Source of the DNA: an uncultured delta proteobacterium
Lineage (GTDB): Bacteria > Desulfobacterota > Binatia > Binatales > Binataceae
Direction: 5' to 3'
DNA length: 64,000 nucleotides
Assembly: GCA_963794325.1 (NCBI GenBank)
Contig: CAWCDG010000007.1
Coordinates: forward strand, 128,001 to 192,000
Below are positions 5,098 to 11,084 of the stretch, piece after piece. A program made the position numbers and the translations under genes. Numbering within the stretch: position 1 is the first letter of the stretch; each line of letters begins with the position of its first letter. The notes under the pieces are model-generated. The model made no database searches. It saw only the letters and a program-made list of their open reading frames with translations, and was not told the DNA's origin.

Positions 5098-6444
5098 CTG
5101 GATTCGCGCGCGCACTTGCGCCTTGGTCCATTTCTCGCGCGCGAGCGTATCGGCGTGCTCGGGCGAGATGACCAACAAGATCTCGCCGGCGTTGTGCTGC
5201 TTGGGATGCCAGCATGCTTCGAGTCCCATGCCGAGACTGCCGGCCAGCGCGCGTGCCGTGCGCGAAGTCTGATCCGCAATCTGCCGCGATCCCGCCTCGA
5301 GCCCGAACACCGTCACCACGTTCTCATCTTTCTTGAAGCCGCGCTCGACATGCAGCGGCTCCCACGGACTGCGCTCCTCCCATTCGGCGAAGCAGGTCGT
5401 GAACTTGCCGATTGCGCCGAGCGTCGAGCGCTCGATATCTCCGGGCTTCGCGCCGCCGACGTTGCGCAGCACCAGCTTCAGCGCGCGCCCGATAGTCGCG
5501 TTGGAACGCGTGCCGTAGCCGAGCGCCATCATGCCCATGTTCATGTCGAGGCGATGCCGAATCGGACCGTTCACGACGATCACCGGCGTCGCACCCCAGG
5601 TCGTCGACATGATTCCGTGGATGTTGAACTCGTCGGTGCACACCGCTTCGAGCGCGGCGATCACGACCGGCAGATACTCGGGGCGGCATCCCGCCATCAC
5701 GGCGTTGACCGCGACTTTCTCGACCGTCACCGGCGCGAGGTTCGGTGGCACGATCGCAATCACGTCGCGCGGATCGCGCCGCGTACCGGTCAGCATCCAC
5801 ATCACACGCTCGGGCGTCGGCGGCACCACCGGCAATCCGTCGGTAAGCCCGCGCTCGAACATGAATTCGAATACGTCCTCTGCGTCGCCCAGCTCGATTC
5901 GACGCGCGGTCAGCTTGTCGCCGCGCGCCTCCGCTTCAAGATGCTCCGCGATTCCCGGCTCGACCGATTTGGAGCCGCACCCCGGCCGCGACTCCGGATA
6001 CGAGTTCCAATCGATAGCCGGCGGCTGCTTGCCTGATAGTCGCGACAACTCCGCGAACATCTCGCGCCAATCGTCACGCCCGAAGCCGATGAAACGTCGC
6101 AGCTCGCGGCCCTGCGCGTCGGCGAGGATGATCGTCGGCACCGTGTCGAGGTCATATTCGAACGAAACCCTGAGCGCCGAATCGTCGAGCATCGGAACTG
6201 TCAGCGCATATCGCTCGACGAGTTTCGCGTTGCCATCAGCATCCTGTCCGATCGCCCACACATCGACCGACGCTCCAAACGCGCGATGCGCCGCCTCGAT
6301 CAGCGGCATCGTCATCCCGCAGGTCGGGCAATCTTCCTTGACGAAGCAGAGCAGGGCGGACCGGGTGGACGGAAACGATCGCGAGGTTCCTGCACCGTCG
6401 CGCAACTCAAATGCCGGCAATAAGGTTTTCGTTGAGTCGTTCAT
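5098..6444 (-). pseudogene. TlpA/thioredoxin-like (CPTC) domain fused to a UGSC-associated-type domain (DGLPVVPPT family), 3' truncated by fusion to the cyclase remnant
   Basis: KEDCPTC redox motif, PGCGS, GLTDGLPVVPPTPERV, EKVAVNAVMAGCRPEY, NATIGRALKL. After KAQVRARIQ the sequence switches abruptly to cyclase TPR-like sequence. Confidence 0.7.
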
Positions 6445-7694
6445 TCCGTGGCCGGAGACGTTTCCGGAACCATCAAAAATCGATGCTGCTTCGGAGAATA
6501 AAACTCGACTGCCGCGGTTATCAACGCCTTGTCCGCGACGCCGCCGGCAATCATCACTTCGCCGTCGTTCAGTAGTGTCGCAGTATTCGTCAGCCGCGCG
6601 ACACTGGTTTGACCCACATGAGAGAACGCGTTGGTGTCCGGCAGGAAAACTTCAGCGTCGCGCATCCCGACCACAATCGGTCCCTGAATTCTAAATCCAC
6701 CGACGACCAGCACCTTGCCGTCGTCGAGCATCGTCGCAGTCGCAAGATAGTGGGGCGCACTCATGTCGCCGGTTCGAAGGAAGGCGCCCGATTCAGGATC
6801 ATAAATCTCCGCGGAGTTGAGCGGCGTCAGCGAAGCGATATTGCGAAGCCGGCTCGTCATCATTCTCCCGCTCTTGCCGCCGACGATCAGCACGCGCCCG
6901 TCGTTGAGTTTGACCGCGGCCGCGCCGACGCGATCGCTCTTCATGTGCGCGCGCACCGGATTGAAGCTGCGGGTCGCCGGATCGTAGATTTCGGCGGTGT
7001 CATACGAGATATAGCCGCCCGGCATCCCGCCGCGCCCGCCTCCCGCAATCAACACTTTGCCGGTGCCGAGTAGCGCCGCGACATGCGCGACGCGCGGCTG
7101 ATGCAGATGGCCGGTGCGGCTGAACGTCCCGCTCGAAGGATCGTAAATCTCGGCGGAGCTCAGCGTATGGATTCCATTGTCACTGCCGCCGGCAATCAGC
7201 ACGCGCCCATCGCGAAGCATCGTGGCCGTATGCCCTTCGCGCGACACCGACATCGAACCGGTCGGGCTGAAAGTGCCGGAGGCCGGGTCGTAAATTTCGG
7301 CGCTGGCCAGCTCCGAGCGAAATCCCGCGTTTTGGACGCCACCGGTCAGCAGCACGCGTCCGTCGCGCAGCATCGTGATTGTCTGTCCCGCCCGCGGCAC
7401 TGTCATCGAGCCGGTCGGCGAGAACGTTCGCGCGACAGGATCGTAAAGCTCGGCGCTCGAGAGCACGCCGCCTATTTCTCCGGTCGCGGTGCCGCCGCAA
7501 ATCAGCACGCGCCCGTCGCGGAGCCGAATCGCGGCCGCATTCGCGCGCGGGGTAGTCATCGCGAGAGCCTCGACGCGGTTGCCTTGCGGATTTTTGACAA
7601 AGGCCGGCGGCGCCTCGGTCACACCACCGCCAGCGCACGCCGTAATTCCGGCCGCAAGAAGAAACGAGAGCGCGACAAGATATCGATGATTCAC
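6441..7694 (-). CDS. Kelch-repeat (beta-propeller) lipoprotein
   Basis: Lipobox-like GITAC after a hydrophobic signal; about six repeats of L(R/N)DGRVL..GG..SAE(I/L)YDP. Confidence 0.88.
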   Translation of the reverse strand: MNHRYLVALSFLLAAGITACAGGGVTEAPPAFVKNPQGNRVEALAMTTPRANAAAIRLRDGRVLICGGTATGEIGGVLSSAELYDPVARTFSPTGSMTVPRAGQTITMLRDGRVLLTGGVQNAGFRSELASAEIYDPASGTFSPTGSMSVSREGHTATMLRDGRVLIAGGSDNGIHTLSSAEIYDPSSGTFSRTGHLHQPRVAHVAALLGTGKVLIAGGGRGGMPGGYISYDTAEIYDPATRSFNPVRAHMKSDRVGAAAVKLNDGRVLIVGGKSGRMMTSRLRNIASLTPLNSAEIYDPESGAFLRTGDMSAPHYLATATMLDDGKVLVVGGFRIQGPIVVGMRDAEVFLPDTNAFSHVGQTSVARLTNTATLLNDGEVMIAGGVADKALITAAVEFYSPKQHRFLMVPETSPATE

Positions 7695-7713
7695 AGTGAC
7701 CTCGCGCGCTGAA

Positions 7714-8328
7714 TCATAGGCCCGGCGCGTCGGGTTGGAAAGTTATTTGATCGGCGAGCGGACGCCGTGGCGAAGCGCGTTCATCGACGCACGGAGGAAC
7801 ATCAGTCCGGGGAAGACGCCGCGCTTGCGCGGTTTGGTTTGCGGTTCGAGCGCCACGGACGAGTTCGCGCACCAATCCGGGCAATTGATCCACGCTGACG
7901 CGCGACCCGATCTCTTCGAGCGCACGGAAGCGCACGACGCGCTCGCGATCGATCACGAATGACGCGGGAAACGCGATGCCGCCTTTTTCGTCGCTGTTGA
8001 GCAGGCCGTACTTTTTGACGACCTCGCGGCTGGTGTCGCAGAGCAGCGGAAACTTGAGGCCGAACTCCTGGCGGAGTGTCTCCGTGCGAGCGGCGTCGTC
8101 AACCGAGATCGCAACCAGCTCGGCGCCGGCTGCGCGAAGATCCTCGAGATGCTCGGAATAATCCGCCAACTGGCGGAGGCAAAACGGTCACCAGTGGCCC
8201 CGATAAAAAACGACGATGCACATTCCGCCGGCGACCAGGTCGTCGAGGCGGCGTATGATGCCGGTCGAGTCGGCGATCGCGAACTCGGGGGCCTTCTCGC
8301 CAATCGACGGGATGTGCCGTTCATCCAT
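7714..8328 (-). CDS. AhpC/TSA (peroxiredoxin-like, redoxin) selenoprotein with UxxC motif
   Basis: ATG at 8328 gives MDERHIPSIGEKAPEFAIADSTG..CIVVFYRGHW-TGA(8190-8188)-PFCLRQLADY..LVAISVD..FPLLCD, in frame with ORF 7714-8169. The TGA sits at the first Cys of the family motif FYRGxWCPxC. The true C-terminus may be at 7743 (frameshift). Confidence 0.85.
8162..8177 (-). promoter_or_regulatory. Bacterial SECIS-like hairpin
   Basis: mRNA reads UGA-CCGUUUUGCC-UCCGCC-AGUU-GGCGGA: a perfect 6-bp stem whose G-containing loop starts 16 nt after the UGA. Confidence 0.65.
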
Positions 8329-8462
8329 CGCTAAAACAATAGCCGCGGTCGCGAGTTAGAGGAATATTGAACCTCCGCCAAGGATCGATGTTTCGATTGA
8401 CCAGCTGCTACCCGGTTATGCTAATCGTTTCGCCCTATGAAACGCAGCTCAAGGAGAAAACG

Positions 8463-8828
8463 ATGAAAGCTTTCGCTTTAATCGCAGGTGCCGTTGCGAT
8501 GCTCGTGCTATGCGCCGCGCCATGCCGCGCACAGGATCCGGCCGTGACCGATCCGGCACACTTCAAAGTCGAGTTGAACAACGATCGCGTGCGCGTGCTG
8601 CACGTCACCGTCGAGCCGAACACCAAAGTCGACGTGCACGAAATCGGCGATGCGGTCATCGTCCCTCTGACCGACTACGATTCGACCCTGAAGCGTCCCG
8701 ATGGACAGACGTCAGTCGTCGAGCGCAAGACCGGCAAGGCCGTCTGGGTTACGCGCGGCGTCCGCGAAGTCGAGGCCGGCGCCAAGGGCGTTGATGCGCT
8801 GCTGATCGAGATCAAACACGCGCCGTAG
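8463..8828 (+). CDS. Secreted cupin-like small protein
   Basis: AAGGAG RBS, signal peptide MKAFALIAG..CRA, and QDPAVTDPAHFKVELNNDRVRVLHV cupin-like pattern. Confidence 0.75.
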   Translation: MKAFALIAGAVAMLVLCAAPCRAQDPAVTDPAHFKVELNNDRVRVLHVTVEPNTKVDVHEIGDAVIVPLTDYDSTLKRPDGQTSVVERKTGKAVWVTRGVREVEAGAKGVDALLIEIKHAP

Positions 8829-8840
8829 ATATCGTCGCCG

Positions 8841-9752
8841 TCAGTCGAGGATGAATTCGCCGCTGCCGACGATCGCGCATCGTCCGCCGATTCGGATTGC
8901 GAACGCGCCGCTGTCCTTGCGCGCGACCTCGACCCGTATTTCACTGGGCCGTCCCATCTCGACGCCTTGCTGGATCGTGAACGACCGTTTTGGTGCTGGG
9001 TTGATCAATCCGTAGGTGGCGGCGTACGCGCCGAACGGAGCCGAGGCGCCGCCGGTCGCCGGATCCTCGGCAACTCCGTCATGCGGCGCGAACATCCGCG
9101 ATCGCGGAGCGAACTCGCGGGTCTGGTTTGCGACGAACATATATGTGGCAAGCACCGGCTCACCCGGCTTGAACAGCGCCGCAAGCGCCACTGCGTTGGG
9201 CGCGCATTTCGCGAGCGCATCCAGGCTGCGAACCGGGACAAACATAAACGGATAGCCAGTCGATACACTCTGAATCGGCAGATCGTCGCGAATATCTGCC
9301 GCGGTGATCCCAAGCGCCTTCGCGATGCGCTCGCGATCATCACGCTTCGCGCCGAACTCCGCCTCCCGATGCGCCATCCATACGAAGTCAGGCTTGCCGT
9401 TGGTACTCTCGACCGTCACCGTCACCGGCCCGATCCCGAGCTGCAACGTCGCATCGACACTGGCCGAATCGAGCGCTATCTCGCCGCGACTCGCGAGCAC
9501 CCAGGTAGTGCCGACAGTCGGATGCCCAGCCATCGGCATTTCATGCTTCGGTGTGAAGATCCTCACGCGGCGAACGCTCGAAGATTCGGGAGGCATCACG
9601 AACGTCGATTCACTGAAGTTCATCTCGTGCGCCAGCTCCTGCATTTCGGTCGCGCTGAGCGGAGCCGCGTCGGTGAATACGGCGAGCTGATTACCGCCGA
9701 ACGGCTTGGAGGTGAAGACATCGACGAGGACGAACGAGGTTTTTCTGGGCAT
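8841..9752 (-). CDS. PhzF family isomerase/epimerase
   Basis: VDVFTSKPFGGNQLAV, EMNFSESTFV, RIFTP..EMPMAGHPTVG, EDPATG, QGVEMGRPS. Confidence 0.95.
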   Translation of the reverse strand: MPRKTSFVLVDVFTSKPFGGNQLAVFTDAAPLSATEMQELAHEMNFSESTFVMPPESSSVRRVRIFTPKHEMPMAGHPTVGTTWVLASRGEIALDSASVDATLQLGIGPVTVTVESTNGKPDFVWMAHREAEFGAKRDDRERIAKALGITAADIRDDLPIQSVSTGYPFMFVPVRSLDALAKCAPNAVALAALFKPGEPVLATYMFVANQTREFAPRSRMFAPHDGVAEDPATGGASAPFGAYAATYGLINPAPKRSFTIQQGVEMGRPSEIRVEVARKDSGAFAIRIGGRCAIVGSGEFILD

Positions 9753-9848: not shown

Positions 9849-11084
9849 TTACTTGCCGACGACGAAGACGCAGCTGGTGGTGCCGCTGCCGCCGATGTTC
9901 AGCATCGCAAATTTCTTTGCGTTCTCGACTTGGTAGTCACCCGCGCTATGCGTTATCTGCCGATGACAATCGAGCATCTGACGCACGCCCGTCGCGCCGA
10001 CCGGATGGCCCGCGCCAATCAGCCCGCCGCTCGGATTGATTGGCAGCTTGCCGCCGAGCTCGATCACGCCTTCCTCGACCGCCTTCCACGACTCGCCGGG
10101 CTTGGTGATCCCGAAGTGATCGATCGCCATATATTCCGAGGTAGTGAAGCAATCGTGCGTCTCGATTCCCGACAGTTCGGCCGCCGAACCGATCCCCGCG
10201 CGCTTGAACGCATCGAGAATCGCCTGCCGCGTATGCGGCAACACGTAGGCGTTGTCGCGGCTCTCTAAAACCTTGGTGTCGAATTCGAGCGGCGCCGTAT
10301 GATGGCCCCATCCGAGGATGCGCGGGATATCGGCAAGCTGCTTGCCATTGCGCTTGGCCCACGCGCTCGCAAACTTTTCCGACGCGAGGAAAATCGCGAC
10401 CGATCCGTCGGTCACCTGCGAGCAATCGCTCACCTTGATTCGGCCGCCGATGACCTGGTTGAACTTGCTCTCGTGCTGCGCGTGACTCTCGCTCATGAAC
10501 CAGTTGCGAGTCTGCGCGTTGGGATTGCGCTTGGCGTTGGAGTAGTTCACCGCCGAGATATGCGCGAGGTGTTCGTCCTTCAGCCCGTAGCGCTTGTCGT
10601 ACTCGTCGCCGAGCCGCCCGAAAAGTTTCGGAAACGGGAACTCGATCCCCTTGGCCTCGCGCTCGTACCACGCCGCGGTGCCGAGGTAATCGCCGCCGGT
10701 GGTCGAATCGACAGTCTTCATCTGCTCGACGCCGACCACGCATGCCAGGTCGTAACGCTCGGCTTCGATCTCGGCCGACGCTGCGATCAGCGCAATCGAG
10801 CCCGACGCGCACGCCGCCTCATGACGGCTGGTCGGCAGCCCCGAAAAAGTCGGATCGATCTCGACGAAAAACGCGCCGATATGGCCCTGCTTGGCGTACA
10901 GCTCGGCGGCGAAGTTGCCGACGTGAGCGGTCTGAACTTCGCGCGGCTCGATCTTCGTCGCTTCAAGCGCGGCCAAAGTCGCCTCGCGCATCATCGCCAC
11001 GAAATGCTTCCCTTCCTTCGACCAATTGCGGGCAAAGTCAGTTTGCGCTCCGCCCAATACGTACACCGGCGCTGGTTTTGTCAT
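9849..11084 (-). CDS. Acetyl-CoA acetyltransferase (thiolase family)
   Basis: EAACASG, ETHDCF, NPSGGLIGAGHPVGATG motifs. Confidence 0.93.
   Translation of the reverse strand: MTKPAPVYVLGGAQTDFARNWSKEGKHFVAMMREATLAALEATKIEPREVQTAHVGNFAAELYAKQGHIGAFFVEIDPTFSGLPTSRHEAACASGSIALIAASAEIEAERYDLACVVGVEQMKTVDSTTGGDYLGTAAWYEREAKGIEFPFPKLFGRLGDEYDKRYGLKDEHLAHISAVNYSNAKRNPNAQTRNWFMSESHAQHESKFNQVIGGRIKVSDCSQVTDGSVAIFLASEKFASAWAKRNGKQLADIPRILGWGHHTAPLEFDTKVLESRDNAYVLPHTRQAILDAFKRAGIGSAAELSGIETHDCFTTSEYMAIDHFGITKPGESWKAVEEGVIELGGKLPINPSGGLIGAGHPVGATGVRQMLDCHRQITHSAGDYQVENAKKFAMLNIGGSGTTSCVFVVGK

Follow-up and report, generated by a model that had tools for sequence, protein, structure and literature searches.

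Does the TGA codon that interrupts a redoxin-like gene of an uncultured delta proteobacterium of the family Binataceae end a protein, mark a damaged gene or encode selenocysteine (Sec)? The gene lies on the minus strand of a 64,000-nucleotide stretch (hereafter the window), which corresponds to positions 128,001 to 192,000 of contig CAWCDG010000007.1 (C7:128001-192000) in GCA_963794325.1, a 4.45-Mb assembly of 10 contigs that is 85% complete. Our analysis indicates that the gene, which runs from 8328 to 7743, very probably encodes a cytoplasmic, thioredoxin-fold selenoprotein of the AhpC/TSA kind with about 194 residues, in which UGA codon 47 would be read as Sec by means of a selenocysteine insertion sequence (SECIS) hairpin and which would serve as a thiol-disulfide oxidoreductase or reductase. 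The UGA codon is conserved, the hairpin that follows it is conserved and constrained, and the genes of the Sec machinery are present in the genome.

One reading frame across the UGA codon

When positions 8328 to 7714 are translated with TGA as U, a single protein is obtained, MDERHIPSIGEKAPEF...VVFYRGHW-U-PFCLRQLADYS.... Judged from its orthologues, the whole gene occupies 7743..8328 of the minus strand, with an ATG at 8326-8328 and a TAA at 7743-7745, and counts 194 codons in relatives, the window copy being broken by an extra base at 7849. The TGA is codon 47 (8190-8188) and lies in FYRGHW-TGA-PFC, as originally predicted. Under translation table 11 this one frame is split into two open reading frames (ORFs). 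The first (8328-8188) has 46 amino acids, ends in ...FYRGHW-TGA and comprises codons 1-46 (8191..8328), at which 24-42 of the 46 residues are identical in orthologues; the second (8169-7714) is the truncated ORF of gene callers, starts at the TTG of Leu54 and has 151 amino acids here and 141 in relatives. The original prediction was placed at 8150-8328, a span that takes in the hairpin, the TGA and the N-terminal part; the gene itself continues to about 7743.

Both sides of the TGA belong to one domain. The Pfam AhpC-TSA model covers residues 9-134 with 103 bits (cut-off 26) and Redoxin scores 73 bits; since the AhpC-TSA match crosses the TGA, the claim that redoxin-like sequence stands on both sides of it is true. 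The median pairwise ratio of nonsynonymous to synonymous substitution rates (dN/dS) comes to 0.23 over codons 2-46 and to 0.14 over codons 48-158 (18 genus-level sequences, 153 pairs), and such low values on either side imply that both are translated in the same frame and kept by purifying selection. One mark of a bacterial selenoprotein gene, coding sequence conserved in a single frame before and after an in-frame UGA, is found here.

Public annotation gives another picture of the gene. A search of 5.8 billion predicted proteins with a 165-residue query returned 413 matches, of which 120 were listed; all of these have 140-151 amino acids and cover 58-68% of the query. One (P0002) is the window's own 151-residue call and the other 119 have 140-145 residues, and the names that they bear are "peroxiredoxin", "peroxiredoxin Q/BCP" and "thioredoxin-dependent peroxiredoxin". 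The miscalled start, the TTG at 8167-8169, encodes Leu54, lies partly in the loop of the hairpin and is invariant in all 80 loci of the genome scan presented below, which explains the uniform 141-residue miscall across databases. That standard gene callers truncate the gene was thus rightly anticipated, and among the matches listed the truncation is systematic. They are recorded as peroxiredoxins without their redox centre, so that redox chemistry and selenium use are under-counted in abundant soil bacteria.

These calls, which number hundreds at 141 residues, and the table-11 ORFs on either side would fit a TGA that is a true stop, the locus then yielding a 46-residue peptide and a separate protein of 141-151 residues from the TTG at 8169. 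This is very unlikely, as a single Pfam domain runs across the TGA, every orthologue retains the frame before and after it and the upstream 46 codons are under purifying selection; furthermore, the truncated product would be devoid of the redox motif and of two core strands, and its supposed start is an internal Leu codon that forms part of the hairpin and is conserved.

Conservation of the UGA codon among relatives

A six-frame search covered 41 genomes: the one that contains the window, 24 from its genus and 16 from elsewhere in the class. An orthologue with 58-83% identity and exactly one in-frame TGA was found in 18 of the 24 same-genus genomes; among the remaining six, five have distant matches only (30-36% identity) and one has none. 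Codon 47 is TGA in 19/19 sequences (the window and the 18 orthologues), in which FYRGHWUPFCLRQLADYS is invariant; one of the 18 orthologues (L034, from genome G024) is flagged as unpublished, and the count without it is 17/17. A broader sample of the class, comprising 301 genomes, added eight orthologue-grade matches from other genera, with 45-55% identity and one TGA each, one of which (G233) is unpublished. Finally, a pattern scan of 185,579 species genomes yielded 427 relatives, the best 80 of which are the 80 loci referred to throughout, and all 80 carry TGA at codon 47. The titles of their records point to Candidatus Binatus, Binataceae, "uncultured delta proteobacterium" and various Acidobacteriota groups, with single records from Dormiibacterota, Tepidiformaceae and Vulcanimicrobiaceae.

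Such constancy bears directly on the proposal of a decaying gene whose TGA arose by nonsense mutation or through an error of sequencing. The window copy does hold a second defect, the extra base at 7849, and comes from an assembly that is 85% complete, but a TGA at the same codon in 19/19 and 80/80 sequences already refutes the idea, the TGA recurs in the short-read contigs of three runs, and dN/dS is low downstream; we consider its likelihood negligible.

A quick tree of 77 of the 80 loci, with support from the Shimodaira-Hasegawa-like approximate likelihood ratio test only and leaving out L148 and two sequences with fewer than 130 residues past the TGA, sets an Acidobacteriota clade apart from a Binatota clade. 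The TGA codon and the hairpin appear to predate the split between the two clades. Recent horizontal transfer between the phyla was considered and finds no good case, the tree splitting by phylum with few odd labels. Two of these are a record titled Acidiferrales inside the Binatus clade and one titled Dormiibacterota inside the Acidobacteriota clade (L076 and L122); odd labels of this kind may be either mislabelled or mis-binned genome bins or rare transfers.

Cysteine stands opposite Sec in five relatives with about 33-35% identity, whose motif reads YRGDY-C-PFA, and a PrxQ-like relative has FYPKDD-T-PGC-T at the motif. The five (L042, L043, L045, L046 and L048) bear a long hydrophobic N-terminal extension and lack the second Cys of the motif, which suggests that they may form a membrane-anchored single-Cys branch of the same family. 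No Cys form was found among the close orthologues examined (19 genus-level sequences, eight from other genera and the 80 loci), which could mean that Sec is obligatory. The comparison of Cys and TGA forms that had been proposed as a check thereby came out in favour of Sec, all orthologues having TGA and only distant relatives Cys.

The probable SECIS hairpin

The RNA from codon 47 onwards reads UGA-CCGUUUUGCC-UCCGCC-AGUU-GGCGGA, and the hairpin, whose sequence is that of the prediction, lies at 8162..8177 on the minus strand: a 5' arm UCCGCC (8177-8172), a loop AGUU (8171-8168) and a 3' arm GGCGGA (8167-8162). The stem has 6 base pairs and the loop 4 nucleotides; the stem begins 10 nucleotides and the loop 16 nucleotides past the UGA. 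The bacterial SECIS model, as summarized in a figure legend, has a loop of 3-9 nucleotides, an upper stem of 4-16 base pairs, a G in loop position 1 or 2 that is mostly followed by G or U, a UGA-to-loop distance of 16-37 nucleotides and a minimum free energy of at most -7.5 kcal/mol (PMC13188914, Fig. 2 legend). Checked against the values of that legend, the hairpin lies within every limit (4 nucleotides, 6 base pairs, AGUU, 16 nucleotides and -11.0 kcal/mol). The energy of -11.0 kcal/mol, which is that of the hairpin alone, was equalled by 3/200 shuffles as an 18-mer and 5/200 as a 36-mer. An Rfam search over 7600-8500 gave nothing relevant, its lone match being a 13-bit chance hit to Plant_SRP.

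The evidence that exceeds chance is comparative and not the folding of one sequence. The hairpin is formed by codons Leu51-Arg52-Gln53-Leu54-Ala55, which are 6-, 6-, 2-, 6- and 4-fold degenerate, respectively. In the 18 genus-level sequences, a single codon is used at 4/5 of these hairpin codons compared with 1/51 of the other invariant degenerate codons (Fisher p 6.7e-5). Across the 80 loci, the hairpin codons CAG, UUG and GCG are each found in 80/80, whereas free variation is seen in the adjacent codons for Pro, Phe, Cys, Asp and Tyr. The commonest stem is altered in 22/80 loci, in 21 by one C-to-U change that retains a G.U pair and in one (CUA) with loss of one pair, and all six stem pairs are kept in 79/80.

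Among 27 sequences in the AGUU register, the stem columns pair in 86% of cells, a share that drops to 17-69% if the partner is displaced by 1-3 columns. Pair 17-26 changes on both sides from GC to UA and pair 18-25 from CG to GC, the latter once also from CG to GU together with an Ala-to-Ser replacement. In 25 distant homologues with W-U-P-[FY]-C, a hairpin occurs at the same place with another sequence and with loops such as GGU, GUC, GUU or CGGGA; examples are AGCUGCAG-GGU-CUGCAGCU, UCAGCUC-GUC-GAGCUGA and CAGCU-CGGGA-AGCUG. One common structure for all W-U-P-x-C homologues was tried and rejected because the loop distance differs among subfamilies (the loop starts at nucleotide 20, 24, 25 or 28 from the U of the UGA), and the pair counts were therefore limited to the 27 AGUU-register sequences.

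Selenocysteine machinery and other TGA genes of the genome

The window's genome holds selA, selB, selC and selD, the protein models all scoring above their curated cut-offs, so that the search proposed with the original prediction ended in its favour; of the two findings that would have spoken against Sec, a genome devoid of Sec machinery and relatives with TGC or TGT, neither was made. The scores are 375.3 bits for selB (cut-off 242) and 569.7 bits for selA (cut-off 268), both free of internal stops, and 376.9 bits for selD (cut-off 125), which contains one in-frame TGA at the known Sec/Cys site (...CKAAG-U-AGKLG...) followed by its own hairpin and adjoins selB (C4:1158546-1161572). The gene of tRNA-Sec (selC) scores 72.4 bits against a gathering score of 47 and is called tRNA-SeC with anticodon tca by ARAGORN. 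It was also observed that selA and the tRNA-Sec gene lie elsewhere on contig C4, apart from selD-selB.

The genome has 22 AhpC-TSA matches. No internal stop occurs in 16 of them, and the other six have an in-frame TGA in the redox motif (UxxC or UGC, x being any residue) and then a hairpin; the six motifs are three W-U-P-[FY]-C, two WASW-U-GC and one YG-U-IFC. Apart from the gene studied here, these are found at C4:561191-561586 and C9:63075-63470 (SADW-U-PYC), C4:1177659-1177997 and C2:78860-79198 (WASW-U-GC) and C4:388226-388519 (YG-U-IFC), and the host lineage looks selenoprotein-rich. Together with selD, the genome thus shows seven genes that have an in-frame TGA at a redox site or a known Sec site.

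An amino acid other than Sec could in principle be inserted at codon 47, be it Trp, Cys or Gly by a near-cognate tRNA or through a genome-wide change of the code, given that low-level read-through of UGA occurs in bacteria and that the inserted residue cannot be named from sequence alone. Against this, the complete Sec machinery is present, the hairpin lies within the SECIS limits, and the TGA of all six AhpC/TSA genes sits in a UxxC or UGC motif ahead of a hairpin. Moreover, selA, selB and 16/22 AhpC-TSA matches are free of stops, so that TGA is no general sense codon in this genome. Decoding as a standard amino acid is accordingly very improbable. In the mechanism that we favour, the hairpin would recruit SelB and Sec-tRNA(Sec) to the ribosome as a bacterial SECIS does, and UGA codon 47 would be decoded as Sec with the machinery supplied by the genome's own selA, selB, selC and selD.

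The extra base and the C-terminal tail

The orthologues have 194 residues (one has 197) and end in a conserved tail, ...PRKRGVFPGLMFLRATMNALRHGVRSPNK, with the terminus ...GVRSPNK-stop. In the window, the corresponding tail EPQTKPRKRGVFPGLMFLRASMNALRHGVRSPIK (7746..7848, minus strand) is out of frame, as one extra base at 7849 puts it in the +1 frame (ORF 7743..7925); it is kept in orthologues and more loosely in the Acidobacteriota relatives. None of the six aligned orthologues has this base, nor does it occur in the covering short-read contigs, which come from three soil runs of one study (3/3 covering runs, recorded as "left out 1" at 7850). The same contigs show no difference at the TGA where they cover it (records 8, 11 and 15) and differ from the window at 3-4 other nearby positions, so that a close strain may be their origin; the source sample itself may also be among the three runs. 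Most likely, the extra base is an assembly error or a recent strain variant and not biology. A programmed frameshift at 7849 was considered and set aside, the base being absent from the six aligned orthologues and from 3/3 covering runs.

Three relatives (L098, L099 and L103) also have C-terminal parts that are truncated or frameshifted, the tail of L103 resembling that of the window, and such assemblies may go wrong repeatedly at this place. With only 85% completeness and 10 contigs, other indel errors may exist in the assembly as well. The tail has no Pfam match, and in the structural model presented below it forms a strand (168-170) and a helix (173-186) at lower confidence.

Fold, motif and likely chemistry

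The closest intact orthologue was modelled with AlphaFold on the basis of an 18-sequence alignment, which gave a mean predicted local distance difference test (pLDDT) of 84.5 and a predicted template modelling score (pTM) of 0.85. The redox motif W46-U47-P48-F49-C50 (8179..8193, minus strand) consists of invariant columns and stands at the N-terminal end of a predicted helix (48-59), residue 47 directly preceding it. The top Foldseek matches are peroxiredoxins and BCPs, such as 3hjp_A (template modelling score 0.90 on the target, root mean square deviation 1.6 over 158 columns) and 5ovq_A (E 6.7e-14). On inspection of the translation, neither a signal peptide nor a membrane anchor was evident at the N-terminus.

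A profile alignment with 2cx3 (FFPAAFSPVC) puts U47 opposite Ser, C50 opposite Cys and Arg43 opposite Pro, and the counterpart of Pro121 is the Arg of IAYRGLF in peroxiredoxin-2. The aligned Pro, Thr/Ser, Cys and Arg are what we take to be the catalytic residues of peroxiredoxins. Only the Cys (C50) of this canonical set is kept, Arg43 standing in for Pro, Sec47 for Ser/Thr and Pro121 for Arg, and with three of the four active-site residues replaced the protein is not a canonical peroxiredoxin. The original prediction had placed the UGA at the catalytic position, which is right in that Sec is the first residue of a thioredoxin-type UxxC, but the peroxidatic position is that of Cys50, and Sec aligns with the Ser/Thr of TxxC.

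No NCBIfam model reached its cut-off, the best being a ResA-type model (NF002854) with 54.5 bits against 170. The peroxiredoxin equivalogs scored 52 against 211, 48 against 261 and, for PrxQ, 45 against 260; PrxU (NF040737) scored 33.2 against 270, with Sec at the T position and no TxxU motif in the protein; the SelL-related redox protein model (NF040769) scored 48.2 against 120 and the WAxxUGC_long model 19 against 300.

Sec47 would most likely act as the attacking nucleophile of the W-U-P-F-C centre, where the first long helix begins, and Cys50 as the resolving residue, with formation of a selenenylsulfide, and the protein would then work as a thiol-disulfide oxidoreductase or reductase. Alternatively, it could be a peroxidase in practice, a proposal that shares Sec decoding with the former and differs in chemistry only: peroxides would be reduced by Sec47, in the manner of glutathione peroxidase, or by Cys50, acting like the peroxidatic Cys of peroxiredoxins, the other of the two would resolve and thioredoxin would recycle the enzyme. 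The fold nearest to peroxiredoxins and BCP, the alignment of Cys50 with the peroxidatic Cys and the public annotation of the truncated calls as peroxiredoxins lend this some plausibility, but it is possible rather than probable given the replacement of the peroxiredoxin Pro, Thr/Ser and Arg and the scores of every peroxiredoxin equivalog model far below the cut-off. In addition, two papers file UxxC selenoproteins of the AhpC/TSA kind as thioredoxin-like, apart from the TxxU peroxiredoxins (PMC1088965, PMC9312934).

Weighing the evidence

The interpretation of the locus as a selenoprotein gene, which was the core of the original prediction, is supported by the Sec machinery, the conservation of the TGA, the agreement of the hairpin with SECIS limits, the synonymous constraint and purifying selection. 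Several points nevertheless weigh against our interpretation or parts of it. Insertion of Sec and binding of SelB are inferences, and no RNA run was listed as containing positions 7600-8500 of the window. The copy assembled in the window encodes a frameshifted tail. As to the hairpin, its 16-nucleotide spacing is the lower limit of the range published in the legend cited above, and a 61-nucleotide piece is no stabler than its shuffles (z -0.17; 85/200), which makes folding of the single sequence weak evidence. Only two pairs change on both sides, a count reached by 116/500 shuffles; no shuffle (0/500) reaches the number of cells changed on both sides or the covariation score, but the sequences are related. 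With so few independent events and 116/500 shuffles, we regard the covariation of the putative SECIS as supportive, not decisive.

The selection of sequences also matters here. The 25 distant loci were chosen from rows already flagged as having one TGA, and the patterns of the genome scan held FCLRQLADY, so that the constancy of the peptide in the 80 loci is partly built in, while the codon choice should not be; in pattern-free searches, LRQLA[DE][YF] was found in 6/7 fetched family-level orthologues and LRQLSEY in the seventh. Lastly, the proposed chemistry is derived from motif and fold alone, and Cys50 still occupies the peroxidatic position, which keeps peroxidase activity possible.

Gene neighbourhood

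The selenoprotein gene is flanked on one side by a Kelch-repeat protein gene (6441-7694, minus strand) and on the other, divergently, by a small ORF on the plus strand (8463-8828) with a signal-peptide-like start, MKAFALIAGAVAMLVLCAAPCRA..., and no Pfam match; a PhzF-like gene (8841-9752) and a thiolase-like gene (9849-11084) follow. All-against-all clustering of the ORFs of the window and the 80 loci revealed neighbours common to close relatives only, namely the thiolase-like gene (44 loci), a dehydrogenase-like ORF (42) and the PhzF-like gene (31), and no partner gene conserved across phyla; the two largest ORF clusters are artefacts of spurious GC-rich ORFs.

Significance and comparison with known systems

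The locus is a real, well-supported selenocysteine gene of a known kind, and its value lies mainly in annotation. The literature has included UxxC selenoproteins of the AhpC/TSA kind and a bacterial SECIS model since 2005, so that no new principle is involved, and the selenoprotein is hidden in the sense that gene callers miss it but not in the sense of a kind absent from the literature. The 80 loci, which span two phyla and share a hairpin of almost constant sequence, nonetheless form a natural data set on how a SECIS in a coding region freezes synonymous sites. A literature search on selenoproteins of the Binat- lineage gave only irrelevant word matches among those listed, and one on selenocysteine in Binatota turned up a single paper, PMC9999580.

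Beyond this, we tentatively propose, as a possibility that is on balance doubtful, a distinct subfamily of UxxC AhpC/TSA selenoproteins, with the present gene as its first example, in soil bacteria across the Binatota and Acidobacteriota clades, with a basic C-terminal tail, the peroxiredoxin Pro, Thr and Arg lost, the Cys at the peroxidatic position kept and a near-invariant SECIS; the host lineage would then be an unrecognised, selenoprotein-rich soil group with at least six AhpC/TSA TGA genes and a Sec-containing SelD. If such a subfamily exists, it would point to a specific substrate or partner bound through the tail and not to a generic thiol oxidoreductase.

The hairpin resembles the bacterial SECIS consensus (the bSECISearch model, in its printed summary) in loop size, stem length, an early G followed by U in the loop, spacing and energy, but it has the minimum spacing of 16 nucleotides and a short stem of 6 base pairs, and a lower stem is not evident. 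With the Sec-peroxiredoxin PrxU (TxxU), the protein shares the Pfam family, the fold and a SECIS within the ORF; in PrxU, however, Sec replaces the peroxidatic Cys, whereas here the Cys is retained and Sec takes the Thr position, three residues upstream of it. The CxxC oxidoreductases ResA, TlpA and CcmG likewise have a W-C-x-x-C-type motif at a helix start, and ResA structures are among the sequence matches, but in our protein the first Cys is Sec, the score is far below the ResA cut-off and an N-terminal signal or anchor is not evident. The UGC-containing Prx-like/WAxxUGC proteins are also selenoproteins of the AhpC/TSA kind and two of them (WASW-U-GC) occur in the same genome, their motif being UGC and that of the present protein UPFC.

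The closest likeness is to the Prx-like thiol:disulfide oxidoreductases, which also go by the names "Prx-like protein" and "Prx-like 1", and that selenoproteins of the AhpC/TSA kind are known is borne out by this UxxC family. A table entry, "Prx-like 1, pfam00578, UxxC", counts 225 selenoproteins and 2,740 Cys homologues (PMC2398784, Table 2), and the tables of another paper report a Prx-like UxxC family in Geobacter, Syntrophus and Desulfotalea (PMC1794560). A "Prx-like thiol:disulfide oxidoreductase, PF00578, UxxC/UxxU" stands under predicted families in one source (PMC9312934) and the same family under "predicted with high confidence" in the table of another (PMC13188914). The two features that define the family in these entries are both found here, the PF00578 domain (residues 9-134, as scored above) and Sec in UxxC (W-U-P-F-C); the assignment uses these two printed features alone, the printed reference protein being WP_010940744.1. 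On these grounds the gene fits the known, still only predicted, Prx-like thiol:disulfide oxidoreductase family (PF00578, UxxC), perhaps as a distinct subfamily. As far as the printed entries go, the AhpC-TSA domain, UxxC in place of TxxU/TxxC and the existence of Cys-containing homologues are shared with the family. The members named in those entries come from Geobacter, Syntrophus, Desulfotalea and marine metagenomes, whereas the present gene belongs to a soil lineage with an Acidobacteriota sister clade, and it differs from the printed family in its conserved C-terminal tail of about 30 residues and its almost invariant hairpin sequence.

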